DNA from: Nostoc sp. DedSLP01
Lineage (GTDB): Bacteria > Cyanobacteriota > Cyanobacteriia > Cyanobacteriales > Nostocaceae
Reading direction: 5' to 3'
DNA: 64,000 nt
Assembly (NCBI GenBank): GCA_034530875.2
Contig: JAVRCJ020000003.1
Coordinates: 64,001-128,000, forward strand
Shown here one piece after another: positions 2,553 through 28,586 of the stretch (the first letter of the stretch is position 1; each line of letters starts with the position of its first letter). The position numbers were made by a program, and so were the translations under genes. The notes beneath the pieces are model-generated. The model made no database searches and was not told the origin of the DNA. It was given only the letters and a program-made list of their open reading frames with translations.

Positions 2553-3665
2553 TCAACCAACAATATTAGCTACTTCCTGGCAAATAGTCGTAGGCTCAAA
2601 AGGTTTCGCAACTACTCCGGTAATTCCCATCTGGGCAAAGTGAGCGCGATCGCTTGGTAAAACTTTAGCTGTGAGTAGAATTACAGGTATAGATTGAGTT
2701 GCGGAATTTGCCTGAAGTTGCTCGTACACTGCAAACCCGTCCATGTTAGGCATAGACACATCAAGCAGAATCGCATCAATGGCTTGTGCCTCAGCGATAG
2801 TTAAACATTCCATCCCTGATGCAGCCGTCAGCGTATCCCATCCGCCCAAATCTTCTAAACAAGCCGATCGCCCAATCAGCGATGCAACTGAATCGAGATG
2901 ATGGTCGTCTACCCATCTTTGGCTGACAATTAAATAGCGCATATCGCGATCGAACATCGCAATCCCAGCAGGTGCATACTGGACAAATAGGCGTAAGGTT
3001 GTTTCCCTCTCGTGCAAAGCACTTTTAAAGGATTCTAGGTTCTCTTCATCAATACATAAATCGTTAATTTGGAGTGGTAAGATAGCCATCCACTCGGGTA
3101 CAACCGATTCCACAACAACTCTTCCGCCCCGGTCTGAAGAAAATTGGAAAATAGTCACGCGATCGCACGTTAAAAACTGCCGTACTTCATCGACCGTAGT
3201 TTGTAAAATATTTTGTAAATTCAGCGATGGTCGAATCCCCTGTGCGATTCTCATCACTAAGCCTTGTTGCTCGAATTGCTGTTGCAATTGTTCGGCATTT
3301 TCCAGAGCTAATTTTTGAGCTAGTTGTTTAACCTTGTGTTTACTTTTAACTACATTGCTAGTCAGCAGATTAATTATTAATGCTACCGATAGGAAAAAGC
3401 CTAGCTGCAATATATCTTCTGGTTGAGAGGTAAAAATTTGATATTCGGGGGAAATCAAAAAATAATCAATTGCCAGCGTTGAAAGGATGACTGTAACTAT
3501 CCCTGGATGAAAACCACCATAGAGAGTACTGACAATAATAGCTATATAAAAAAAAGCATCTATAGTTCGAGATATCAGTGATTCTAACCAAAGTGTGAAT
3601 AACAAAGCGATCGCACTTGAGCCAATAGCAACGCTATAGGGCAATAATCGCAGATAAAATCTCAT
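2553..3665 (-). pseudogene. Internally deleted sensor/regulator chimera: DUF4118 TM - truncated GAF - truncated PAS - N-truncated receiver domain
   Basis: Four TM helices; GAF start ILQTTVDEVRQFLTCDRVTIFQF; PAS start APAGIAMFDRDMRY ending at LIGRS; REC part DAILLDVSMPNMDG...IPVILLTAK...KPF lacking strand beta1. No kinase core. Confidence 0.6.
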
Positions 3666-3739
3666 AATTTTTGATTTTTACTAGCCCTAGCTTGATATTA
3701 CACTGATTTTGGGGCTTTGACGCGCTCGGGCACTTTGAA

Positions 3740-3840
3740 TGGAATGCGGATCGGTGAGACAACTGTAATCCATTAACTATCGGCATCTCTAGTTCTAGCA
3801 ACAGTAGATTTGACGATGTTACGATTAATACTTGTCAAAA
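3740..3840 (-). pseudogene. Receiver-domain fragment
   Basis: Minus strand reads F*QVLIVTSSNLLLLELEMPIVNGLQL, resembling the REC segment FWQVL...PDLLLLDLEMP..NG..L with an internal TGA. Confidence 0.5.
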
Positions 3841-3964
3841 TTAGCGATCGCTCATTCCCAACCAAAATTGTAGAAAAAGCGATCGCTCTCATTACTATAT
3901 AGATATAGGATAGATATAGGACTTAATTCTTCAGTTCAGCTAACTATTCTCATTTAACAAAATA

Positions 3965-4456
3965 TTAAATTTGATAACAAGCCGTCAAAGCCACTGCTAA
4001 AGCATCAGCAGCATCATCTGGCTTGGGAATCTCATCTAAATCCAACTCCCGCGCCACCGCTTCTTGCACTTCAGACTTATCGGCATTGCCATATCCTGTT
4101 AAAGCTTGTTTAATTTGAGCAGGAGTAAACTCCATATAAGGAAGCCGACGTTGCCCCAAGACTAACATAATTACACCCCGCGCCTGTGCAACCAAGATAG
4201 TGCTTGACATACGATAGAAGAATAATTTCTCGATCGCCACTAAATCTGGTTGAAATTCCTCAATTACAGTGTGTAAATCATCAAACAAGGTACACAGCCG
4301 CTGTCCCATTTCTACATCTGCTGAAGTTTTGATTACTCCAAAATCCAGCATATTTACTGTGGTCTGTTGCAGCTTGTTAGGAATTTGCGTGCAACTAATT
4401 GCCCCAAATCCTAAAATTGCCAGTCCTGGATCTAATCCTAAAATTCGTTTTTCCAT
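3965..4456 (-). CDS. ruvC: Holliday junction resolvase RuvC
   Basis: [28 protein letters not shown] and [12 protein letters not shown] motifs. Start trimmed to the ATG at 4456 (MEKRILG). Confidence 0.95.
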
Positions 4457-4956
4457 TCTTACCAAAAAGGGGGTGTCGGGTGTAGGGTGTAGGGGAAAAA
4501 CTAAAATTCCCGCACCAAGGGAGGGCACAAGCCCTAGAACGCTCGTCATGAAAAGAGTGTAGGGATTATCTACCAAAACTAGTACAGCAAGCGTGGAAAT
4601 AAACATACCATTTGAAATGCCTAAAACCCTTACACAACATTAATTACGTTAGCGTAGCGGGGCGTAGCCCATTACGAATTACACGAAGCAGTACTAGGGT
4701 GTAGCTGAGTGGGTATAGTGTAATTTAACAACGATTAACAATCGCGTTGATTCCCCAACCTTTAAACGCCGAACAGATTGAATTTTTGATGCCATAAGTT
4801 CGATCGAGTTATTCCTCCACCCCACACCCTTTTAATAACTTGCTTTTAGCCCTATAGGATTGAAAAATATAATAGTTTGACACTTCGTGTTTAAAACCAA
4901 GTGGTGTTGATTTTCTGTTAATTATTAGTTTGTAGCACTGCTGTGAATCATCAGGT

Positions 4957-6327
4957 ATGTCAATTGGTTTTCTCAGACAAGCCCTCAACGCCCTGCGAAA
5001 GCAGTCGCCCTCTCGTACTTCCTATCGGGTTAATCAGTGGTTTAAATGGTTATCCCCCGGATTATCGATTAAACGTTGGTTCCTAATCAGTATTGGAGGT
5101 GTAGTGCTAGCGATTTTGGGGTTAGCTATTTGGGTTAAGCTGACCCCAATTTTTTTAACGATTGAGTTGATTAGGAGCTTCCTGGGAGTAATCACCGAGA
5201 TCTTACCCAACTATATTAGCGGGCCTTTGGTGCTGCTCGGTGGCTTGCTGTTGCTGCTTTGGGGGCAAACTCGCACCGTCGGCTCAATTACTAAGGTATT
5301 AAGAACCGATCATGAAGAGGAACTGATTGATGTTTTGCTGGCGCACCGTAGATTATACCGAGGGCCAAAAATAGTAGTCATTGGTGGTGGTACGGGGCTT
5401 TCTACGTTATTGAGGGGATTAAAAACTTACAGTGCTAATATTACTGCGATCGTCACTGTAGCAGATGATGGTGGATCTTCTGGGCGATTGCGCCAGGAAT
5501 TTGGCGTGCTACCACCAGGAGATATTCGCAATTGTTTAGCAGCCTTAGCAGATGAAGAAAAGTTATTAACGGAATTATTTCAATATCGCTTTCGTGCTGG
5601 AGATGGGTTGACTGGTCATAGTTTTGGCAACTTGTTTTTAACAGCAATGAGTGAAATTACTGGAGATTTAGAACGCGCAGTTGCAGCTAGTTCTAAAGTG
5701 TTAGCTGTGCGGGGACAAGTACTACCAGCAACTTTGAGTGATGTTCGCCTTTGGGCAGAATTAGCCGACGGCCGCCGCATTGAAGGAGAGTCAAATATTC
5801 CCAAAGCTGGCGGCAAAATTGTCAAAATTGGCTGTATTCCGGCTAATCCCCCAGCCATACCAGCAGTTATTAAAGCCCTTAAAGAAGCAGACTACATTAT
5901 TATTGGCCCGGGTAGCCTGTATACTAGCCTGATTCCGAATTTATTGGTACCAGAAATTGCCGATGCGATCGCCAAAGCCAAGGTTCCCCGTATCTATATC
6001 TGCAATATAATGACTCAACCAGGAGAAACTGAAGGATATACTGTTGCGGATCACATCCGAGCAATTGACGCTGCTTGTCAGCAAAGACAGCTATTTGATG
6101 CCGTACTCGTACAAAAAAGATCCCCCTCCGAACAATCACTCATCCGCTACGCGCAACAAAATTCCCATCCCGTTTTCCTAGATAGAGAAGCTGTAATTGA
6201 GCTAGGACGGCGAATTGTGCCAGCTAATGTTTTATACGAAGATGACATAGGTATAATCCGCCACAATCCCCAAAAATTAGCCCGAGTTTTATTGCGCTGG
6301 TACGGTAGAGCGAATCAAGGAAAATAG
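4957..6327 (+). CDS. yvcK: YvcK/GlmR family UDP-GlcNAc-binding protein with N-terminal TM extension
   Basis: [38 protein letters not shown] and GPGSLYTS motifs. Confidence 0.9.
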
Positions 6328-6423
6328 TCATTGGTCATTGGTCATTGGTCATTGGTCATTGGTCATTGGTCATTAGTCATTGGTCATTAGTCATTGGTCA
6401 TTGGTCATTGGTCATTAGTCATT
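6325..6423. repeat. STRR2-type heptamer tandem repeat (TT[G/A]GTCA), about 14 units
   Basis: Read directly between yvcK and tsaE. Confidence 0.95.
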
Positions 6424-6454
6424 AATTTTTCTCCCCTGCCCCCTCTGCCCAATT

Positions 6455-6910
6455 ATGAAAATTCTTCTTCCAGACCCACAAGCAACGCTACGTTTAGGTA
6501 TTACTCTCGGTGAATCCCTAAGCGCTGGTAGTGTAATTTTACTAGAAGGTGATTTAGGTGCTGGTAAAACTACTTTAGTCCAAGGTATTGGCAAAGGTTT
6601 GGGAATTAGCGAACCGATTGTCAGTCCGACTTTTACCTTGATTAATGAGTATACTGAAGGACGCCTGCCCCTTTACCATTTGGATTTATATCGCCTAGAA
6701 CCCCAAGAAGTTCTCAGCCTGAATTTAGAAAGTTACTGGGAAGGCGTTGAGGTTACACCAGGAATTGTGGCTATTGAATGGGCAGAACGAATGCCTTACA
6801 AGCCAGATAACTATTTGAATATAAGTTTGATACATACAGACCAAGGCGAGCGCCAAGTCGAAATCATAGCATTCAATTGTGCAATTGATAAAATCATTGC
6901 CGCTATTTAA
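6455..6910 (+). CDS. tsaE: tRNA t6A ATPase TsaE (HetY-like)
   Basis: GDLGAGKTT, VSPTFTL, HLDLYRL and IEWAE motifs. Confidence 0.95.
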   Translation: MKILLPDPQATLRLGITLGESLSAGSVILLEGDLGAGKTTLVQGIGKGLGISEPIVSPTFTLINEYTEGRLPLYHLDLYRLEPQEVLSLNLESYWEGVEVTPGIVAIEWAERMPYKPDNYLNISLIHTDQGERQVEIIAFNCAIDKIIAAI

Positions 6911-19013: not shown

Positions 19014-20684
19014 TTAGGCTCCGGGTTTAAAATAATCCAAGAGGCGATCGCCTGAATCAGCGCGAATCAATGCTACAACTACATCTGGTAAGGCAGCTAA
19101 GCTGGGATAAACTAAATAACGCGGTTCCCAACGGGGGTGGAACTTCTCTTTATAGGTATGTAACCCCTGGAAATTGTAGAAGTGATTTAAATGTTCGTAA
19201 AGATAATGCAATACTTTCTCTAAACGGCGCGATTGTGGGTTATCTCCAACTCCAGCGAGTGCAGAAAGACCAAAATTGAAGCTATCGTAACCACATTCTT
19301 TAAAATGCTGGAGCAGCGAAATGAATAAAAAGTCCATTATGCCATTTTCAAGGGACGAGCGATATCGCATCAAATCGATAGTTGCTTCATTAAGTTGATA
19401 CTCTGGAATAATATTTGCAAAGGCGCTAATCTGACCTTCAGGGCTATGCAGGACAGCAATCTCACATTCTCGCAGATATGCTTCATCAAACCAACCTAAA
19501 GAAAAGTGTTTTTCCGAACCTTGTACCATATTTAGCCATTCATCACTTACAGGTTTGAGTAAGTGCAACAAATCATTGTCGATTGGTGGTTGGTAAAAGT
19601 TAATTCGGTATCCTAGTTTTGTTAAACGATTGATTGATGGTCTAAAATTTTTCCCAGCTTTACCTTGTAATGTAAAACTTTGCAAATCAACGATCGCTTC
19701 TTCTCCAATCTTGAGTACTTGAAATCCCAATGACTTGTAAAGTTCAACATCATCGGGCAAAGTTTGATAAAAACTAGGATACCAATCATTGCGCAGGCAA
19801 AACTGCCAAAAAGCAACAATTGTCTCTTTGCGGTCTTCAATGGGGCCGATGGGATCTCCTAAGGCGATCGCGCCTCGTCCTTTGGAAACGTAAGCGATTA
19901 CACTATTACCAGAAGGGCTGAAATAATAACTCTTATCATTTAATAATGTCAAAGCTGCTAAAGAAGAACATCCATATTGTTCGATAATTTCTTTAGCTTT
20001 TTTGCGTTCGTTTGGAGTTGCTAAATTACGCCAAAATACGGGTTGCAACAACATAACCACCGCGTATGTAATAGTAACTGCTGCAATCACATAAATAGAA
20101 TTAGCAAAAAAAGCCCCAAACTTGCTTTTTGGTTCCAGACCCCAATTATCTTCGGTGAAGAACATTGCTAAAGTCTGAACTACGGCTTCACGCCAATTAA
20201 AATTTTGTGAAAACTTGCCATCTAATAAGTAAAATCCAATAGTTCCGTATGCCAGGGTAAATAATAAAGCACCAATTAGCACTCGGACTCCCCTTGCAAT
20301 AGAAGGAGGGTCTGATTGCGCTGTAAAAACATGGCGCATCAGAATTAATTGCATTAATAATATGCCAGATAATATACTTTCTTCGTAATCAAATCCTTTC
20401 ACCAAGTGGCTGAACATAGAAATGACTAGCAGGCTAACAATCAGTAACCAAGCTATCTTTTTTCGGCGTAATAAATTAGTTGCAAGTGTTAATAAAACAA
20501 ACCCAGTCAGTGCTGCAAAAATATGACCAGTAGCACGAATTTCAAATGGTAAAAATTCCTTTAACCAGTGATTTCGACCGTACAGGTTAGGTGTCACTGC
20601 GGATAACAAATTTACTATCCCCACTAAACCTGTAAGGAAAGCTGCACTCCAAAGTCCAATCTGAGTTTTTAAGTTATTAGTCAT
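19014..20684 (-). CDS. MprF-type aminoacyl-phosphatidylglycerol synthase (TM region + DUF2156 catalytic domain) without the flippase domain
   Basis: DKSYYFS, ALGDPIG, KIGEEAIVDL, SDEWL, EKHFSLG, TIDLMR, NGIMDFLF and FYNFQGLHTYKEKFHPRWEPRYL motifs. Confidence 0.9.
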   Translation of the reverse strand: MTNNLKTQIGLWSAAFLTGLVGIVNLLSAVTPNLYGRNHWLKEFLPFEIRATGHIFAALTGFVLLTLATNLLRRKKIAWLLIVSLLVISMFSHLVKGFDYEESILSGILLMQLILMRHVFTAQSDPPSIARGVRVLIGALLFTLAYGTIGFYLLDGKFSQNFNWREAVVQTLAMFFTEDNWGLEPKSKFGAFFANSIYVIAAVTITYAVVMLLQPVFWRNLATPNERKKAKEIIEQYGCSSLAALTLLNDKSYYFSPSGNSVIAYVSKGRGAIALGDPIGPIEDRKETIVAFWQFCLRNDWYPSFYQTLPDDVELYKSLGFQVLKIGEEAIVDLQSFTLQGKAGKNFRPSINRLTKLGYRINFYQPPIDNDLLHLLKPVSDEWLNMVQGSEKHFSLGWFDEAYLRECEIAVLHSPEGQISAFANIIPEYQLNEATIDLMRYRSSLENGIMDFLFISLLQHFKECGYDSFNFGLSALAGVGDNPQSRRLEKVLHYLYEHLNHFYNFQGLHTYKEKFHPRWEPRYLVYPSLAALPDVVVALIRADSGDRLLDYFKPGA

Positions 20685-20742
20685 TTGTCGTTAATAGTTA
20701 GGAGTGAGGAGTTAGGAGTTAGGAGTTTTCAATTTTTAACTC

Positions 20743-21651
20743 TTAACTTCTACCTTCTGACTTATGAAACTGTTCTCCTACATAAGAGAGTGAATTTTTG
20801 AGATGTTTGTGGAAGTAGTTCCAGCCGACATCAGTACCAGATAAACCATGACCTCCAGGAAATGCATAAAATACGTGAGTAATACCTAACTTATTTAAGG
20901 TTTGATTAAAGGCTTTGGTTGAAGCTAGTAAATTAGTATCGTTAACGCCCGCATCTAAGTAAATACGTAATTGCTTCCTATCTTGAATTGGTAACTGTTG
21001 CACAATTTGTTGAGGACTATTTTGCGAACCGCTGCTATCAGTAAAGTAACCGCTATGACTAAAGAAAATATGGAAGTTGTTAAGATAGCGTAAGCCGATA
21101 TTAAAAGCTCCCCACCCTCCAGAGGATATACCTCCTATAGCCCAAAATTGGGGTTTTTCTAAAGTGCGGTAGCGTGACTTGACAACTTGTACTAATTCCG
21201 AACCAATTAAAGTCCCGACTTTGCCATTCGGCCCGTCAAAATAATCAGGGTCGTATAAAGGACTGGAACCGCGATTGTCATTACCATCAGGTGTAATTAC
21301 AATCGATGGCGGTAATTTCTTACTTTGATAAAGTTCGTGCAACACATCTAAGATTGCATATTTATCAGCAAAGGCGCGAGCATCATCATGTCCCCCATGT
21401 AGTAAGAATATCACGGGGTAGCGCTTTTGCCGATTTTTGTTATAGCCAGGAGGTAAGATGACGCCATAGTTGCGGACTGCACCCATCGCTTGGGAATTGA
21501 AGCTTACTAATTGAAACTTTAGCCCAGTATTTGTTTCTTCTGCGGGCGGGTCTAGTTGTGGTGCGCCTAAGATAAATACATAATAGTAAGCAGCGATAGT
21601 GAGAAGGGCGATCGCTCCTACCAAGCTAATCAAAAATTTGGAAATCTTCAT
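20743..21651 (-). CDS. Membrane-anchored esterase (alpha/beta hydrolase, PF00756-like)
   Basis: N-terminal TM, LPPGY, YPVIFLLHG, GISSGG nucleophile, YLDAG..D and PGGH. Confidence 0.85.
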   Translation of the reverse strand: MKISKFLISLVGAIALLTIAAYYYVFILGAPQLDPPAEETNTGLKFQLVSFNSQAMGAVRNYGVILPPGYNKNRQKRYPVIFLLHGGHDDARAFADKYAILDVLHELYQSKKLPPSIVITPDGNDNRGSSPLYDPDYFDGPNGKVGTLIGSELVQVVKSRYRTLEKPQFWAIGGISSGGWGAFNIGLRYLNNFHIFFSHSGYFTDSSGSQNSPQQIVQQLPIQDRKQLRIYLDAGVNDTNLLASTKAFNQTLNKLGITHVFYAFPGGHGLSGTDVGWNYFHKHLKNSLSYVGEQFHKSEGRS

Positions 21652-21768
21652 ATATTTTTAGCTTGAAAAAATTCACCTCCATATAGAATTTCAGATATTT
21701 AGTCTAATGCAATTTTCGACATAGCTTTTTGATTCAAATTTGACCGTTAAGCTTTTGATAATATTCTG

Positions 21769-22737
21769 TTATTTTTTGACATTAAGACTTTGATTTTCAC
21801 CTTTATCCATTATCTTTGCTAATTTGAATTGTTCGCCCACGAATGTTAAAGAATCAGCTAAATGTTCGCGCCAATATTGCCAAGTATGACTGCCAGGAAA
21901 CTCCCGAAACAGATGGTAAATTTGGAGTTGTTCGAGTACTTTCTCAAATTGTTCGGCTTCTTGGATTTCTTCTGTATCTGACCTACCAGAATCGAGGTAG
22001 ATTCTCAATCTTTTTTGTGCTTGCAAAGGAATAGTTTTGATATAAATTATTGGGCTATTTTTAGGACCGCTTTTATCCTGAAAATAACCGCTATGACTAA
22101 ATAAAACTGAAAAATTATTTAGATTGTGTAATCCCACATTCACCGCACCCCAACCGCCAGAAGATAAACCACCTATTGCCCAAAAATCTGGGTTTTTTAT
22201 TGTACGATAACGGCTTTGGATAACTTTTACTAATTCATCTCCCACGGCTGTGGAGACATTACCGTTAGGGCCATCGATATATTCAGGGTCTCGGTAGGGA
22301 CTAGAGCCGCGTTTATCGTTACCATCTGGTGTAATAATTATGCTCGGCGGCAACTTACCTGTAATATAAAGTTGTTTGAGAGTTTTAAGAGCTTGTCCTT
22401 TATTTTCAATAAACCAATCTTTAGGATTGCCATGTCCGCCGTGGAGAAGAAAGATTACAGGATAGCTTTGTTTTGGATTTTGCTCGTAACCAGGGGGTAA
22501 AGAAACGCCGTAGGTACGACTTCCACTCATAACTTGACTATCGTAAGTTTCAATTTTATAGCTGAGGGGAGTAGCTAAGTCGCTATTATGAGGCTGCGAT
22601 GGAAAAAGCGAAGGCGTTGTTTGTAAGTTTTGCTGTTGCGGTGGGTTTGCTACGACACTTTGCGAGAAATGACAGCTAAATAGAGTTAATAGTGAAACTA
22701 GCAAGAAAATATTCGATTGTTTGTAGTTCATTTTCAA
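21769..22737 (-). CDS. Exported (lipo)protein esterase (PF00756-like), paralog of the adjacent gene
   Basis: Lipobox-like LFSC, YPVIFLLHG, GLSSGG and PGSHTWQYW. Confidence 0.85.
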   Translation of the reverse strand: MKMNYKQSNIFLLVSLLTLFSCHFSQSVVANPPQQQNLQTTPSLFPSQPHNSDLATPLSYKIETYDSQVMSGSRTYGVSLPPGYEQNPKQSYPVIFLLHGGHGNPKDWFIENKGQALKTLKQLYITGKLPPSIIITPDGNDKRGSSPYRDPEYIDGPNGNVSTAVGDELVKVIQSRYRTIKNPDFWAIGGLSSGGWGAVNVGLHNLNNFSVLFSHSGYFQDKSGPKNSPIIYIKTIPLQAQKRLRIYLDSGRSDTEEIQEAEQFEKVLEQLQIYHLFREFPGSHTWQYWREHLADSLTFVGEQFKLAKIMDKGENQSLNVKK

Positions 22738-22865
22738 AGAGCATTGAGTATTGGACAGTGAGCGCTAGCAATCAAAAGTTTACGCAAGTAATTTGTCAAT
22801 CTTGTGTCAAGACGATGGAAACTTTACGACTAGTTGTAAGTTAAAAATCAATAGTTAAGATAAGT

Positions 22866-23804
22866 TTGCTGGCGATGATGAAAAAGCTGCGACTTCATTT
22901 GAGTTCTTTGTTTGGCTTGCTGCTGCTGGTAATTTCTGTCTGGGCGATCGCTCGCGAATTGCATGACTATAATTATCGTGATATCCTCAACTCATTAGCG
23001 GCAATTCCCAAGAATCGCTTAAGCTGGGCAATTTGGCTGACAGCTTTGGGCTATCTAGTGATGATTGGCTATGATATTTTGGGTTTTAAATATATTAATC
23101 GTTCGCTAAGTTGGAACAAAATAGCTTTCACTAACTTTATTAGTTCTACATTTACCAATACGATTGGTTTTGCCTTGCTAACTGGCAGTGCTATCCGTTA
23201 TCGATTTTATGCTAATTGGGGAGTGTCAGCAGTAGCGATCGCTCAAGTGATTGCTTTTGCTAATTTTACTTTTTGGTTGGGAATGTTTGCCATTGCTGGA
23301 TTGATATTTATTACCAACCCTTTAACAATTCCCCCACAACTACATTTGCCTTTTGCAACAGTACGTCCCATCGGTGTAATTTTTTTGGTACTGATTGCTA
23401 TATATTTGCTGGGAAGTATTTTAATTAAAAAACCTGTAATCATTCTTCAGCATGAATTTCGCTTTCCTTCATTGCCAATATCCTTAGCTCAAATTGTGAT
23501 TTCTAGTCTTGACTGGATTATTGCTGCGGCAGTTCTTTTTGCAATGCTTCCTAGTAATATAACTTTGTCTTATCTCGATTTTTTAGGAATTTATTTACTA
23601 GCGATGTTTGCAGGGGTGGTGAGTAATGTTCCTGGTGGTTTGGGTGTTTTTGAAACTGTGATGTTGCTGCTTCTCTCATCAAAAATTTCGGCGGCGGTAG
23701 TTTTGGGTTCGCTGTTAGCTTATCGTGGGATATACTATTTTTTACCTTTGCTGGTTGCGGCAGGTTTGTTAGGAATATATGAAGTTAAATTTGGAAGAAA
23801 TTAG
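22866..23804 (+). CDS. Stand-alone MprF flippase-like domain (LPG_synthase_TM/UPF0104)
   Basis: GYD, GFALLTGSAIRYRFY, SNVPGGLGVFE and LLAYRGIYYFLPL motifs; about 8 TM helices. Confidence 0.88.
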   Translation: MLAMMKKLRLHLSSLFGLLLLVISVWAIARELHDYNYRDILNSLAAIPKNRLSWAIWLTALGYLVMIGYDILGFKYINRSLSWNKIAFTNFISSTFTNTIGFALLTGSAIRYRFYANWGVSAVAIAQVIAFANFTFWLGMFAIAGLIFITNPLTIPPQLHLPFATVRPIGVIFLVLIAIYLLGSILIKKPVIILQHEFRFPSLPISLAQIVISSLDWIIAAAVLFAMLPSNITLSYLDFLGIYLLAMFAGVVSNVPGGLGVFETVMLLLLSSKISAAVVLGSLLAYRGIYYFLPLLVAAGLLGIYEVKFGRN

Positions 23805-24014
23805 GTTTTTGAAACGCAAAGGTATGCAGAGGTTAGCGCAGAGGAACGCAGAGGATTTTAGCAATATCTTCATAAACTGCGGCGTAAATTCCTAAGTTTT
23901 GCTGAGGCAGTTGCCAGTTGAATTTTATAAGATTAGTAATAGTTATTTAGGATTTTTGATGATATTACAAGAGGTCATCAAAAATTTTGTTTTATCGATT
24001 GAAGAGAAAAAATA

Positions 24015-24404
24015 ATGAGAAATAAACTATTGTTTGGCGCCATATTTATGGCAACTTGGGTAGGAACATTAATCCCGAGTGCTTTTGCGGCTTCACCTTG
24101 TTCTGTGGGACAAAAAGCAGAGGTTTTTTGGAAAGATACATGGTATGCAGCAACAGTCTTAGAAGTGAATGACGATCGCTGCTATATTACCTACGATGGT
24201 TATGATAGTTCTTGGGATGAATGGGTTGATTCTTCACGCTTTCGGGTATCTTTTGAAGTTGGAGACGCAGTACAAATTCTCTGGAAAGGTAAATGGTATG
24301 CAGGGAAAATTTTAGATGTGAGTGACAATCTTTATAAAATTACTTATGACGGTTATGATAGCTCTTGGGATGAGTGGGTTGAACCTGCACGAGTAAGTAG
24401 ATAG
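24015..24404 (+). CDS. Secreted protein with tandem Tudor/Agenet-like repeats
   Basis: Signal peptide ending AFA. Two repeats of VG...V.WK..WY.A.VL.V....YITYDGYDSSWDEWV. Confidence 0.8.
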   Translation: MRNKLLFGAIFMATWVGTLIPSAFAASPCSVGQKAEVFWKDTWYAATVLEVNDDRCYITYDGYDSSWDEWVDSSRFRVSFEVGDAVQILWKGKWYAGKILDVSDNLYKITYDGYDSSWDEWVEPARVSR

Positions 24405-24552: not shown

Positions 24553-24930
24553 ATGGAGCCAGTATCACTAACAGCAGGTGCGATCGCAACCTTGGTCATC
24601 ATCAAAGCTTTTGAAAAAACTGGTGAAATCATCGGCGAAAAGGCTTGGCAGGAAGGTGAAAAGTTATTTTTACTCCTAAAGCGCAAACAACCCAATACGG
24701 CAAGTGCCATTGAACAGGCTCAAACACAACCTTTAAATTATGGTCAGGCTTATCTGATTGGACAGCAAGTAGAGGAAGCAGCAAAGAAAGATCCTGAAAT
24801 TGCTCAAGCGGTGGCAGCTGTAGCCAATGAGGCACAACCTCAACTGACGAACACTATTATTGAAAATTGGCAGGGGATAAACATTAAAGGTGGAACTAAT
24901 ACTATTTCTGGCAATACCTTTAACTTCTGA
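24553..24930 (+). CDS. Small helical protein (Bell/HeLL-like candidate) with N/G/T-rich C-terminal tail, in frame with the downstream NB-ARC ORF
   Basis: Hydrophobic N-terminal helix MEPVSLTAGAIATLVIIKAFEK; tail ENWQGINIKGGTNTISGNTFNF*. Confidence 0.75.
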   Translation: MEPVSLTAGAIATLVIIKAFEKTGEIIGEKAWQEGEKLFLLLKRKQPNTASAIEQAQTQPLNYGQAYLIGQQVEEAAKKDPEIAQAVAAVANEAQPQLTNTIIENWQGINIKGGTNTISGNTFNF

Positions 24931-26703
24931 CTACAGTCGCCCGAACAGGAACGGGTAAAGTCAAATCCTTCTACTGAAATACCGCAAAATTTGCCCCTGA
25001 GTGGGGTGGTGGAATTTATCGGACGCGAAGAAGAATTGCAAAATCTCCACCAACTTTTGCAGGATAATAAACAAGTAGCTATAGCCGCTATTGCGGGGAT
25101 GGGTGGAGTTGGTAAAACAGAACTCGCCTTGCAATATGCCATCCAGCAACGCGAGACTTACAAAGGTGGGCTTTGCTGGTTGTTACCGAAAATTGGGGAT
25201 GTGGGCATTCAAGTTGTGCAGTTTGCCAGAACGCAGCTTGACTTAAACCCGCCAAAAGATTTTGATTTACTCGCTCAAGTGCAATACTGCTGGCGGCGTT
25301 GGCGTGGTGGTGAGGTGCTGCTAGTGTTGGATGATGTCAGCGACTACGAGGAAGTTAAGCCTTACTTCCAGTCGCTACCTTCTCGGTTTAAAGTGTTGAT
25401 GACTACGCGCCAGAAGTTGGGACGCATCGCACAGTTATCTTTGGATGTGCTGCAACCAGAGGCGGCGCTGGAGTTATTAAGGTCTTTACTCAAGGAAACA
25501 CCAGAGCGAATTGAGCGAGAATTAGCTTTAGCAAATCAGTTGTGTGAGTGGCTGGGATATTTGCCTTTGGGTGTGGAATTAGTGGGGCGCTATCTGGCGC
25601 GGAAACAGGATTTATCTCTAGCAGAAATGTTGCGACGGTTGCAGAACAAGCGATTAGATGAGCGTTCCCTGTCTAAATCTAAGTCGGAAGCCGACATGAC
25701 AGCACAACGAGGTGTGTTAGCAGCCTTTGAGTTGAGTTGGCAAGAATTAGAAGACGACGATAAGCAATTGGGTTGTTTATTGAGTTTATTTGCTGCTGCA
25801 CCCATACCTTGGAAGTTGGTGGAACAGTGTTTACCAGATGAAGATGCTGAAGATTTAGAAAAAATTAGAGATGATAGTCTGCTGACTTTGCATTTACTCC
25901 AGCGCAAAAGTAAGGGAGTTTACCAACTGCATCCACTGTTGCGGGAGTTTTTCCAATATAAGCTTACAGGTTTAGAACAGGCAGAGGAATTTAAGCGATC
26001 GCTTTGTCGAGTAATGGTAACAGTTGCTAAGAAGATTCCTCAAGACCCCACCCTTGAGCAAATTAAAGATTTCACCCTGGCAATACCTCATTTAGCAGAA
26101 GTAGCTAACAATCTTATTCAATATGTGAGTGATGATGATTTAATTTGGGCATTCGTTGGTAATGCTCGATTTTACAATGGTCAGGGATTGTATGACAAAG
26201 CAGCACCTTGGTTGAAGCAGTGTCTAGAAGTTATCAAAAAACGCTTGGGAGAAGAACATCCATCTGTCGCCACTAGCCTCAACAACCTAGCAGAACTCTA
26301 CCGTTCCCAAGGCAGATACAGCGAAGCCGAACCCCTTTACATCCAAGCTTTGGCACTTAAGCGCAAGCTGCTGGGAGAAGAACATCCAGATGTTGCACTT
26401 AGCCTCAACAACCTAGCAGCACTCTACGACTCCCAAGGCAGATATAGCGAAGCCGAACCCCTTTACATCCAAGCTTTGGCACTTAGGCGCAAGCTGCTGG
26501 GAGAAGAACATCCAGATGTTGCACTTAGCCTCAACAACCTAGCAGCACTCTACTACTCCCAAGGCAGATACAGCGAAGCTGAACCCCTTTACATCCAGGC
26601 GTTAGATATTTTTGAGCAACGGTTAGGTGCAAATCATCCTAATACTATTACTGTGCGTCAAAATTTAGCATATTTGCGCGATCGCCTCTCCTCAGAACAG
26701 TAA
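24931..26703 (+). CDS. NB-ARC (STAND) NTPase with C-terminal TPR repeats (bacterial NLR); start uncertain, open frame begins right after the TGA at 24928-24930
   Basis: PQNLP...FIGRE, Walker A GMGGVGKT, Walker B LLVLDDV, MTTR, GYLPL, LHPLLR, and 42-aa TPRs LGEEHPDVALSLNNLA. Confidence 0.9.
   Translation, partial: LQSPEQERVKSNPSTEIPQNLPLSGVVEFIGREEELQNLHQLLQDNKQVAIAAIAGMGGVGKTELALQYAIQQRETYKGGLCWLLPKIGDVGIQVVQFARTQLDLNPPKDFDLLAQVQYCWRRWRGGEVLLVLDDVSDYEEVKPYFQSLPSRFKVLMTTRQKLGRIAQLSLDVLQPEAALELLRSLLKETPERIERELALANQLCEWLGYLPLGVELVGRYLARKQDLSLAEMLRRLQNKRLDERSLSKSKSEADMTAQRGVLAAFELSWQELEDDDKQLGCLLSLFAAAPIPWKLVEQCLPDEDAEDLEKIRDDSLLTLHLLQRKSKGVYQLHPLLREFFQYKLTGLEQAEEFKRSLCRVMVTVAKKIPQDPTLEQIKDFTLAIPHLAEVANNLIQYVSDDDLIWAFVGNARFYNGQGLYDKAAPWLKQCLEVIKKRLGEEHPSVATSLNNLAELYRSQGRYSEAEPLYIQALALKRKLLGEEHPDVALSLNNLAALYDSQGRYSEAEPLYIQALALRRKLLGEEHPDVALSLNNLAALYYSQGRYSEAEPLYIQALDIFEQRLGANHPNTITVRQNLAYLRDRLSSEQ
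26245..26622 (+). repeat. Three near-identical 126-bp TPR-coding units
   Basis: Units begin at 26245, 26371 and 26497 ([T/C]TGGGAGAAGAACATCCA). Confidence 0.9.
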
Positions 26704-26752: not shown

Positions 26753-26950
26753 GTTTTGAACTCAAAGTTTCCTGTTCCAAACGAGAACGTTCCCGTTTCA
26801 AGTGAGAATGTTCTTGTTCTAAACGAGAACATTCCTGTTTCAAGTGAGAATTTTCTTGTTCTAAACGAGAACGTTCCTGTTTCAAGTAAGAATGTTCTTG
26901 TTTCAAACGAGAACGTTTCTGTTTCAAGTGACAACGTTTCAGTTTCGAGC
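26753..26950. repeat. 21-bp tandem repeat with alternating 42-bp higher-order unit, about 9 copies
   Basis: Alternating GTTCTAAACGAGAACGTTCCT and GTTTCAAGTGAGAATGTTCTT units, with no unique spacers. Confidence 0.9.
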
Positions 26951-27148: not shown

Positions 27149-27589
27149 ATGACCAGGGTTTATCTAGATACCAGTATTTATAATCGTCCGTTCGATGACC
27201 AAACACAGCCAAAAATATTTCTAGAAACACAAGCTATTATCATAATTTTACAAATGGTGGAGGCCAGATTAATAGAATTAGTTAGTTCTTCAGTTCTAGA
27301 ATATGAAAATAGTCGTAACCCTTTTGTGGTAAATCAGCAATCGATGGAGCGATATTTACAAATAGCTGTCTTGAAAGTATTAGTAGATGAAAATATTAGA
27401 GGTAGAGCAGAAGAACTAGAGCAACAAGGAATTAAACCTATCGATGCACTTCATGTAGCGTGTGCAGAAGCTTCCCAAAGTAATTATTTTATTACTTGCG
27501 ATCGCAGATTAATCAACCGCTGCCAAGATTTATCACTTTTGGTAATCAACCCAACTAATTTTATTCTAGAGGTAGACAATGGAAATTAA
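27149..27589 (+). CDS. PIN-domain (VapC-like) toxin
   Basis: VYLDTS..NRPFDDQ, E, DALHVACA and FITCD motifs. Confidence 0.9.
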   Translation: MTRVYLDTSIYNRPFDDQTQPKIFLETQAIIIILQMVEARLIELVSSSVLEYENSRNPFVVNQQSMERYLQIAVLKVLVDENIRGRAEELEQQGIKPIDALHVACAEASQSNYFITCDRRLINRCQDLSLLVINPTNFILEVDNGN

Positions 27590-27803
27590 AGTGATTAACG
27601 AACAAGAAAATTTACAAGAAGTTATGCAGGTTTTACTCACTCATTTAGAACCATCGAAGGTAATGAAATTTTGGGCTGCTTGTAAACTTAGTGAAGGCGA
27701 CTATTTGCAAGTTAAAGAAAAACTATTTGCTCAAGAAACAGTTAGCAGCTTATATGCCAAAATCAAAGAATATCAAGATGATAGTAAACGCGAAGTCTCT
27801 TGA
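27579..27803 (+). CDS. Putative antitoxin
   Basis: 74-aa ORF overlapping the PIN gene end by 11 nt; contains GDY. Confidence 0.65.
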   Translation: MEIKVINEQENLQEVMQVLLTHLEPSKVMKFWAACKLSEGDYLQVKEKLFAQETVSSLYAKIKEYQDDSKREVS

Positions 27804-28007: not shown

Positions 28008-28586
28008 ATGATAGCCTCCCCCAAACAAAACTACCTTACCCCTGAAGAATACCTCCAACTGGAGGAACAAAATTCTGTTAAACATGAATACATCAACGGC
28101 TACATCTATGCAATGGCTGGCGCACTCGATCCACACGTTACCATTGCTGGAAACCTGTTTGCTCTCCTCCGCGATCGTGTGCGCGGTTCTGGTTGTCGTG
28201 TGTACATCGCCGATATGAAAGCCCGAATTGAATCTCTAAATCGCTTTTATTATCCCGATGTCATGGTTACTTGCGACTCACGAGACCAAGAAACACCAGC
28301 GTATAAAAGATTTCCTTGTTTAATTGTCGAAGTTTTATCCAATTCTACCGAAGCCTTTGACCGAGGCGACAAGTTCGCTGATTATCAAGCACTGGAAAGT
28401 CTGCAAGAGTATGTTTTAATTAATACAAAACGTCAGCGAGTTGAGTGTTTTCGCCGCAACGATGAGGGATTGTGGGTTTTGCAATCTTACACAGCAGAAG
28501 ATAAATCATTTCGGCTCAACAGTATCGATTTTCAAGAAACAATGACAGCACTCTACGAAGATGTGGTTTTTGAACGATCGCAATGA
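28008..28586 (+). CDS. Uma2 family (DUF820) endonuclease-like protein
   Basis: KHEYING, YYPDVMV, LIVEVLSNST..DRGDK and EYVLI motifs. Confidence 0.92.
   Translation: MIASPKQNYLTPEEYLQLEEQNSVKHEYINGYIYAMAGALDPHVTIAGNLFALLRDRVRGSGCRVYIADMKARIESLNRFYYPDVMVTCDSRDQETPAYKRFPCLIVEVLSNSTEAFDRGDKFADYQALESLQEYVLINTKRQRVECFRRNDEGLWVLQSYTAEDKSFRLNSIDFQETMTALYEDVVFERSQ

Follow-up and report, generated by a model that had tools for sequence, protein, structure and literature searches.

The genome of Nostoc sp. DedSLP01 carries a locus in which a stop codon appears to separate, within one reading frame, a small effector from a receptor. The window analysed here is a 64,000-nucleotide stretch of contig JAVRCJ020000003.1, and the locus occupies positions 24553..26703 of its forward strand. 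A Bell-like effector open reading frame (ORF) ends there at a TGA, and the same frame continues into an NB-ARC-TPR protein of the NLR type. Judged from comparative sequence analysis, the TGA is probably subject to programmed readthrough, which would give a short effector and a long receptor with one common signalling tail. The junction also seems, on balance, to represent an undescribed family of portable bacterial readthrough RNAs of ~35 nt, which need no special tRNA, lie between many cyanobacterial effector and sensor domains and would constitute a third NLR architecture.

The effector ORF (24553..24930; this and all features below are on the + strand) starts with ATG at 24553, has 125 codons and closes with TTT AAC TTC TGA. 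Its last 25 residues (24853..24927) are rich in N, G, I and T and form a putative amyloid signalling tail, assigned from the composition of the family tails and from a near-identical motif in two-gene relatives. The TGA (24928..24930), whose conservation across loci marks it as the proposed readthrough codon, is followed by an 8-nt spacer, CTACAGTC (24931..24938), which provides a CTR context (R, purine) and in which C1, T2, A5 and C8 are almost invariant among related loci. The 5-bp hairpin that the earlier note on this DNA had placed 8 nt after the stop was present at 24939..24956, with GCCCG (24939-24943), an 8-nt purine-rich loop and CGGGT (24952-24956), and it shows compensatory changes among relatives. 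AGTCA (24959..24963) could form a lower stem by pairing with TGACT over the stop. A 17-codon in-frame linker and the PQNLP motif together occupy 24931..24996, upstream of or spanning all candidate start codons. The TTG at 24991 proposed by the ORF caller is the Leu codon of PQNLP (24982-24996).

The frame after the TGA is open for 590 codons up to a TAA at 26701-26703, and conceptual read-through predicts a 716-aa effector-tail-X-linker-NB-ARC-TPR protein (24553..26703). Its downstream part contains an NB-ARC domain (25027..25701; Pfam PF00931, 59.2 bits against a cut-off of 23.5, E 4.7e-16) with the Walker A sequence GMGGVGKT at 25096-25119 and LLVLDDV, a TPR_12 match (Pfam, E 2.8e-68), and TPR sensor repeats at 26246..26597 (126-bp unit, 2.8 copies, 93% alike). 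Its Walker A and B motifs and C-terminal repeats give it the makeup of an NB-ARC-TPR STAND (bacterial NLR-like) protein; it does not lie in the single uninterrupted ORF of an all-in-one NLR, since the conserved TGA stands at codon 126. These coordinates confirmed the earlier note's account of a 125-aa ORF, a TGA and the same frame open into NB-ARC-TPR. The locus is present once in its own genome, where the nearest NB-ARC paralogue (C47) bears an N-terminal domain of its own. Promoter and terminator scans at the locus gave chance-level signals only.

The earlier note had named the conservation of a single in-frame stop as the point that would separate readthrough from a simple nonsense mutation. 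A DNA search gave matches in 44 of 61 genomes, many of them beginning at or just 5' of the TGA. Thirty loci were fetched and one without an NLR start region was put aside; in 26 of the other 29, the upstream ORF ended in an in-frame TGA-CTR, and the effector tails were of several kinds. In an effector-anchored scan, the best 80 of 145 confirmed loci were analysed. The ORF ended in TGA, followed by at least 100 open codons, in 68 of these 80 named loci, and the carriers belonged to Nostoc, Dendronalium, Aulosira, Calothrix, Amazonocrinis, Komarekiella, Nodularia, Scytonema, Tolypothrix, Spirirestis, Floridaenema, Aerosakkonema, Waterburya, Microseira and Coleofasciculus. The remaining 12 comprised five loci ending in TAA or TAG with the NLR in a different frame, four in which the effector is broken, one located at a contig end, one with an unrelated TGA, and L156, which has the element but meets a further stop six codons later. 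When the search was anchored on the NLR with a query that left the junction out, the element was found in all 30 of the best loci within the genus, the window among them, and in 3 of 30 loci at the order level; the other 27 had no such junction and mostly carried N-terminal extensions of their own. A simple nonsense mutation was therefore excluded, as the stop is conserved over many genera.

A covariance model of the 57-nt junction matched in 29 of 151 genomes of the order. Twenty-nine loci were read; one was false, and the other 28 were flanked by an effector ORF and an in-frame partner, including one with a disturbed effector and one with TAG. Eight further loci were divided into six true ones, one two-gene pair and one false match. 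A second model, run on 151 genomes of the phylum, matched in 12, of which two belong to other orders, with no match in the four largest distant families sampled (0/50, 0/13, 0/10 and 0/8), and all 10 new loci read had the order effector-TGA-NTPase. The element was carried by four of seven plasmid loci read, and plasmids of the cultured strains Tolypothrix sp. PCC 7601, Nostoc sp. C057, Nostoc sp. UHCC 0870 and Allocoleopsis franciscana PCC 7113 are among its carriers. The survey beyond Cyanobacteriota covered unlabelled metagenomes and plasmids, in which all matches were cyanobacterial, and viral contigs gave no match to a strict pattern and one chance match to a loose pattern.

To see which codon occupies the stop position, we used a metagenome pattern that starts after the stop. 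Eighty of 87 stretches were examined and 66 were distinct; three of these lacked any ORF context and were discounted as chance matches. The codon 5' of the element at the 63 real sites was TGA in 58, TAG in four, TGT in one and TAA in none. The four TAG sites were close kin; a second TAG lineage was found in another genome (G244). The long ORFs of the host (n=3440) end in TAA (1851), TAG (902) and TGA (687), indicating that the position is held as a stop but not as the host's commonest stop. A TGG-led pattern with one mismatch, which is blind to TAA, gave 125 rows in 127 genomes of the genus; 123 had TGA, and the two with TGG were unrelated chance sites. TGA-CT ends only 19 of the 3440 long ORFs in the own genome.

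Altogether we collected 199 distinct junctions, which were partly selected by models containing the TGA and the stem and include kin that are not independent. Codon +1 was CTA in 113, CTG in 78 and CCG, AAG, GTA, ATA, ATC or CTC in the other eight, and codon -1 varied over 14 residues. Phe precedes the stop in 109 of the 199, and the F-x-F tail that the earlier note had expected before the stop is thus not general. Its premise that UGA followed by C is the weakest bacterial stop context was not confirmed either: in E. coli, the accessible text of PMC11126739 has G after the stop lowering termination. The base 5' of the stop was a pyrimidine in 191 of 199 junctions versus 366 of 687 ordinary TGA stops, which raises the possibility that the P-site codon or tRNA contributes to the signal.

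The hairpin has a fixed position. Among 48 diverse junctions, 36 had a perfect 5-bp stem at offset 8; none of the other offsets between 3 and 15 gave one in more than six. Covariation was analysed in 47 junctions: 91.5% of the cells were paired, four of the five pairs changed on both sides, and the covariation score was 0.376, compared with 0.214 for shuffled and at most 0.09 for slid alignments. At the two stem positions that the metagenome pattern left free, Watson-Crick pairs were seen in 62 of 63 sites (position 2; 32 expected) and in 56 of 63 sites (41 expected). The standard stem was present in 174 of the 199 family junctions, versus 103 of 3437 own-genome ORFs with a stem 8 nt after the stop; in an effector-anchored subset picked without the stem, it was present in 31 of 44, versus 3% of ordinary stops. 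Parsimony on a rough tree counted 49 two-sided stem changes in a set preselected for at least four pairs, for which the 12 counted breaks are an undercount. The loop measured 8 nt (166 junctions), 11 nt (7) or 5 nt (1), that is, it varied in steps of 3 nt. Pairing of the lower stem was possible in 81.7% of the cells, and none of its five pairs changed on both sides. Rfam gave nothing at the junction and two weak miRNA matches in the downstream repeat only. The junction thus combines what is expected of structure-stimulated readthrough, namely a conserved stop with a selected open frame and a covarying 3' structure at a fixed spacer.

We then examined the frame between the two ORFs. In 85 effector-NB-ARC junctions, chosen for an NB-ARC match in frame 3' of the stop, the two other frames were closed before the FxGR motif in 85 and 76 cases, and the distance from the stop to PxNLP was 13-17 whole codons. 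A stop within 20 codons was found in frame 0 in two of the 199 junctions, compared with 181 and 160 in the other frames; L156, which is outside this set, would be a third frame-0 case. Expected stop gains were obtained by resampling substitutions on the tree. In the first 12 codons of 176 sequences of the 8-nt-loop class, three gains were seen versus 22-25 expected (0 of 300 runs as low), and at the 63 metagenome sites one was seen versus 5.5-5.9 expected (4-7 of 300 runs as low).

No conserved start codon was found for a separate receptor. From the stop to FxGR, 60 of 154 NB-ARC-type partners contain no ATG, GTG or TTG. A start codon at or before the first Pro of PxNLP was seen in one of 97, and ATG, GTG and TTG were never found at codon +1 (0/199). 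The earlier note had pointed out that the annotated TTG at 24991 sits within PQNLP; the corresponding Leu codon is TTG in 50 of 97 partners and TTA, CTT, ATT or others, one of them GTG, in 47. Two of 21 NACHT-type partners (L199 and L205) have no start for ~100 codons up to the P-loop, and the RefSeq starts of four plasmid partners are ATT, TTG, ATT and GTG, 54 to 114 nt 3' of the stop. We also considered and rejected a -1-frame start that overlaps the stop and relies on a later frameshift: the base 5' of the TGA is A in only seven of 199 junctions, and 76 of 85 junctions have the -1 frame closed.

Natural fusions of the two parts exist. WP_435027459.1 (P0002), a protein record of Nostoc sp. 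CALU 1950, shares 83% identity with the read-through protein across 635 aligned residues; it is naturally fused with Trp at the stop position, and its effector part sits behind another, fused domain. Trp stands at this position in one more fused protein, P0004, which was possibly called with another genetic code, and the fused L292 has TGT (Cys). In E. coli, UGA is decoded mainly as Trp and next as Cys according to the accessible text of PMC11126739, which matches the residues in these fused forms. The L156 locus (3501-6737) has two tandem effector genes, the first with a decayed element; its second ORF is fused to a NACHT-type protein through TCA (Ser) and has a decayed stem.

Two-gene relatives pointed in the same direction. 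In L146 and L213, the NLR begins at an ATG of its own and continues with a copy of the effector tail and the same linker residues, which is the same sequence that readthrough would assemble. Readthrough-type NLRs lack a tail copy 3' of the stop (in 191 junctions, the local score was 30 at best, with a median of 19); two-gene relatives scored up to 140, 78, 46 and 41, though other two-gene relatives reached only 30-38. Around 1507 in L193, the tail region is duplicated and the frame changes before the TGA; this locus is possibly an intermediate between the readthrough and two-gene forms, or an assembly fault. In L350 (3501-5204), on an Anabaena cylindrica PCC 7122 plasmid, the effector ends in TAA followed by an in-frame open stretch of 421 codons; the downstream gene is annotated with its own ATG and a tail-like motif, and the partner is unassigned.

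The element joins diverse modules. In 31 proteins scanned, the upstream modules were Bell-like proteins, alpha/beta hydrolases (PGAP1-like) and a TIR_2 domain, and the downstream modules were NB-ARC, NACHT, nSTAND1-WD40, PsbP_2 behind a hydrophobic segment, and unassigned domains. In an NB-ARC tree of 107 rows, built by a quick method and leaving out P0002, the readthrough, two-gene and own-domain forms interleaved, with 20 label changes. The interpretation offered by the earlier note was supported, but the portability, the tolerance of TAG and the other effectors and partners had not been foreseen. Four loci (L150-L152 and L188) have a partner domain of 124-156 aa after the stop that matches nothing in Pfam and is alike across Tolypothrix, Spirirestis, Microseira and G272. 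In L149 (3936-4655), L351 (Tolypothrix sp. PCC 7601 plasmid), L121 and L123, the effector is joined to a hydrophobic segment and a PsbP-like or Pro/Ser-rich region, which suggests membrane-anchored sensors without an NTPase.

No Pfam, NCBIfam or PADLOC family gave a meaningful match to the 125-aa effector. In its structure model (mean predicted local distance difference test score 71.9, predicted template-modelling score 0.69), helices span residues 6-19, 29-45, 47-57, 63-79, 81-98 and 102-106, and residues 107-125, the C-terminal tail, score below 50. The predicted fold, a helical bundle of ~100 aa with a hydrophobic first helix, agrees with that of Bell domains. The top ESM Atlas cluster had HetE-N on 20% of its members, and upstream Bell-like proteins of the family diverge down to ~20% identity. 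We call the effector Bell-like; the name rests on layout, tail composition and context. The family tails (n=150) are enriched in N (3.3x), T (1.75x), I (1.5x), Q (1.4x) and G (1.4x) and depleted in L, R, A and P. This fits the Bell motif of ~25 residues rich in Q, N, G, V and I, with V (0.85) and K (1.27) going the opposite way.

We propose that a portable RNA signal, consisting of UGA (rarely UAG), CUR, an 8-nt spacer and a short hairpin, renders the stop leaky. Most ribosomes would terminate there, setting free the effector together with its signalling tail. Some would insert a residue, most likely Trp via the ordinary tRNA-Trp, and continue to the effector-tail-NTPase-sensor protein. With the stop in the A site, the hairpin would be near the mRNA entry, where, by analogy with viral cases, it probably slows or hinders the release factor. 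Near-cognate tRNA readthrough with the CUR context and a hairpin at the ribosome entry would account for all of the observations listed above. As suggested by work on Bell/BASS pairs, a triggered TPR sensor may cause the long protein to oligomerise, its tails would template the identical tails of free effectors, and the templated effectors would act on the membrane and kill the cell. The defence role and the amyloid step are inferred by carrying them over from the Bell/BASS and Bab/Agp preprints discussed below.

Several observations weigh against programmed readthrough. The standard stem is lacking in 25 of the 199 junctions, and a Nostoc subgroup with a 9-nt deletion has no standard stem and keeps the TGA and the frame. 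Folding energy at the junction is ordinary, with z 0.67 over 131 nt and z -0.86 over 51 nt, and no consensus pair emerged from RNAalifold; support for the hairpin therefore comes from covariation and not from folding energy. In E. coli reporters, predicted structure was uncorrelated with readthrough in the accessible text of PMC11126739. The partial preselection and kinship of the junctions count on the same side. The earlier note had expected a linker that keeps the frame under purifying selection. The frame is indeed kept, but the first 12 linker codons had 142 synonymous changes versus 182 expected, which gives no purifying signal at the amino-acid level and indicates that conservation there is at the RNA level. 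GTG or TTG occurs shortly 5' of FxGR in 94 of 154 partners, the window included, so separate initiation is possible in these. RNA contigs from four runs of relatives stop short of the stop codon, the nearest piece beginning at 24947. Fold and sequence searches with the effector found no clear solved Bell relative (best Z 4.5, no Foldseek match with E<0.001).

The GTG/TTG codons in those 94 partners would suit an ordinary two-gene operon, in which the NLR starts downstream and the conserved stretch is a non-coding processing, pause or module-swap recombination site. Conservation at the nucleotide level, with third positions fixed and codon 6 encoding 11 different residues, also fits it, as does the shuffling of modules on both sides seen in the NB-ARC tree. 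We nevertheless consider the operon improbable. It does not explain the 60 partners without a start before FxGR, the replacement of TTG in 47 of 97, the loop and linker lengths that vary by whole codons only, the depletion of stops, or a site that always opens with a stop in frame with both sides. The kept frame and the absence of stops and of a downstream start would be equally accounted for by termination and reinitiation at the non-canonical CTR right after the stop, the hairpin aiding the coupling and the NLR being a separate product. CTG, a table-11 start, is indeed at codon +1 in 78 of 199 junctions, but the more frequent CTA and the six rarer codons speak against this, and ATG, GTG and TTG, one change away from CTG, are absent. 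Such an NLR would miss the tail that its two-gene relatives supply, and the fused forms read straight through; reinitiation consequently receives little credence from us. A further alternative is adenosine-to-inosine editing of part of the mRNA, with the hairpin and lower stem as the editing substrate and a Trp codon as the outcome. It predicts the same two products; TGA and TAG are one A-to-G change from TGG, and TAA is two, in keeping with 0 of 63 TAA. Trp in two fused proteins and the pairing of the stop with a downstream AGTYA in 81.7% of cells are also in line with editing. The lower stem, however, shows no compensatory change, a signal positioned by the ribosome would require just such a fixed 8-nt spacing, and the junction context is unlike the UACG motif of bacterial TadA. 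The chance of editing is accordingly slim.

In T4 gene 60 bypassing, too, a hairpin adjoins a stop, and ribosomal bypass or a double frameshift would leave the stop undecoded. Conserved matched take-off and landing codons were not found at the junctions, codon -1 spanning 14 residues, and the other frames are closed, which makes this very unlikely. A nonsense mutation, sequencing error, selenocysteine or reassigned code is hardly credible. The SECIS-like position of the hairpin 3' of the UGA is its only support, and the junction is conserved across many genera and has TAG variants. A reassigned code is opposed by the 687 of 3440 long ORFs ending in TGA and by a gene start with a CTT-TGA-C site, which we take to be prfB. 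Candidate decoding factors were sought in the own genome (G000; 99.8% complete): SelA had no match, seven matches to the tRNA-Sec model were all below the cut-off, no UCA anticodon was present, and the single tRNA-Trp(CCA) has a 5-bp and not a 4-bp anticodon stem, so that selenocysteine, a suppressor tRNA and a 4-bp-stem tRNA-Trp were rejected. In the same tRNA set, the anticodon called for one tRNA-Asn is ATT, and a tRNA at C8 1849-1923 is unassigned.

The programmed readthrough proposed for this junction can be compared with several known systems. Among them are the Bell/BASS pairs of multicellular cyanobacteria (Dyrka et al., bioRxiv 10.1101/2020.01.06.895854), which have a small helical effector with a G/N/Q/I-rich tail, a collinear NB-ARC or NACHT repeat protein, and alpha/beta hydrolase or TIR2 as alternative effectors. 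In these pairs, the NLR is encoded separately, from its own start, and brings a second copy of the motif; the readthrough-type NLR has neither, and the stop is the one route by which it can acquire the tail. The main text of that preprint covers two-gene and all-in-one forms only and does not mention readthrough, stop codons, in-frame arrangements or frameshifts. The predicted long product has the layout of its all-in-one effector-NOD-repeat NLRs, as do the fused relatives P0002, P0004, L292 and the second ORF of L156. Unlike in all-in-one NLRs, the conserved stop here is predicted to yield a free effector as well. In the amyloid abortive-infection system Bab/Agp of E. coli (bioRxiv 10.1101/2024.11.07.622273), a Bell-related effector is activated via a shared motif, suggesting by analogy that phage defence by cell death is the likely function here. 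Bab/Agp differs in having two separate genes and a TPR-GreA/B-PIN partner instead of a STAND NTPase, and the accessible preprint text contains no recoding terms.

Viral structure-stimulated readthrough (Moloney murine leukaemia virus (MoMLV) gag-pol, alphaviruses, CTFV) and the Q-beta coat share with the mechanism proposed here a leaky stop, two products and a set ratio; the accessible text of PMC13517186 also describes a spacer of at least 8 nt before a 3' structure, of exactly 8 nt in MoMLV, and a CUR context like that of the type II motif. Unlike these, the present element is in cellular bacterial genes, has a 5-bp hairpin and not a 50-nt pseudoknot, and is reused across unrelated gene pairs. 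The literature searched, with most subscription papers outside its scope, reported no readthrough in bacterial NLR or Bell loci, as the earlier note had believed, and gave no structured bacterial readthrough example. In the text available, PMC7918605, on in-frame stops in prokaryotic genes, has neither cyanobacteria nor NB-ARC in its main text, and PMC13092985 does not mention cyanobacteria. The parts are of known kinds; the combination and the RNA element appear to be new. Bacterial selenocysteine insertion also uses an in-frame UGA with a 3' hairpin (SECIS), but SelA and tRNA-Sec are missing here, TAG is tolerated, and termination gives a complete protein. To our knowledge, well-supported programmed readthrough in cellular bacterial genes beyond selenocysteine and pyrrolysine is rare.

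If the third architecture is true, one gene gives a free effector and an effector-receptor, interconvertible with the two-gene and all-in-one forms, which shows a way for both proteins to hold an identical templating motif. The receptor amount may then be tied to translation fidelity under stress or infection. Readthrough would also explain many cyanobacterial NLR genes annotated with arbitrary starts and no signalling domain, loci that screens requiring the motif in the annotated NLR N-terminus would overlook. The natural compensatory variants make the question of hairpin versus bacterial release factor directly testable, and the element could become a tool for fixed protein ratios.

The surroundings of the locus vary among relatives. 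Upstream of the effector, a cluster at 19014-24404, presumably a split MprF-like cluster with two esterases, includes a two-domain Agenet/Tudor protein. The last MprF-like gene adjoins 32 of 80 related loci and the Agenet gene 26, including the two-gene variants L125 and L144, indicating that the readthrough and two-gene architectures occupy one genomic site. Immediately 3' of the NLR stop, a 21-bp (42-bp) tandem repeat of 8.5 copies spans 26769-26946. It is followed by a PIN-domain gene with a small overlapping partner gene (27149-27803) and, 3' of the PIN gene, by a 192-aa gene (28008-28586), which we assume to resemble a Uma2-type nuclease. The PIN gene adjoins only four of 80 related loci and the 192-aa gene seven, which makes the site a variable slot.

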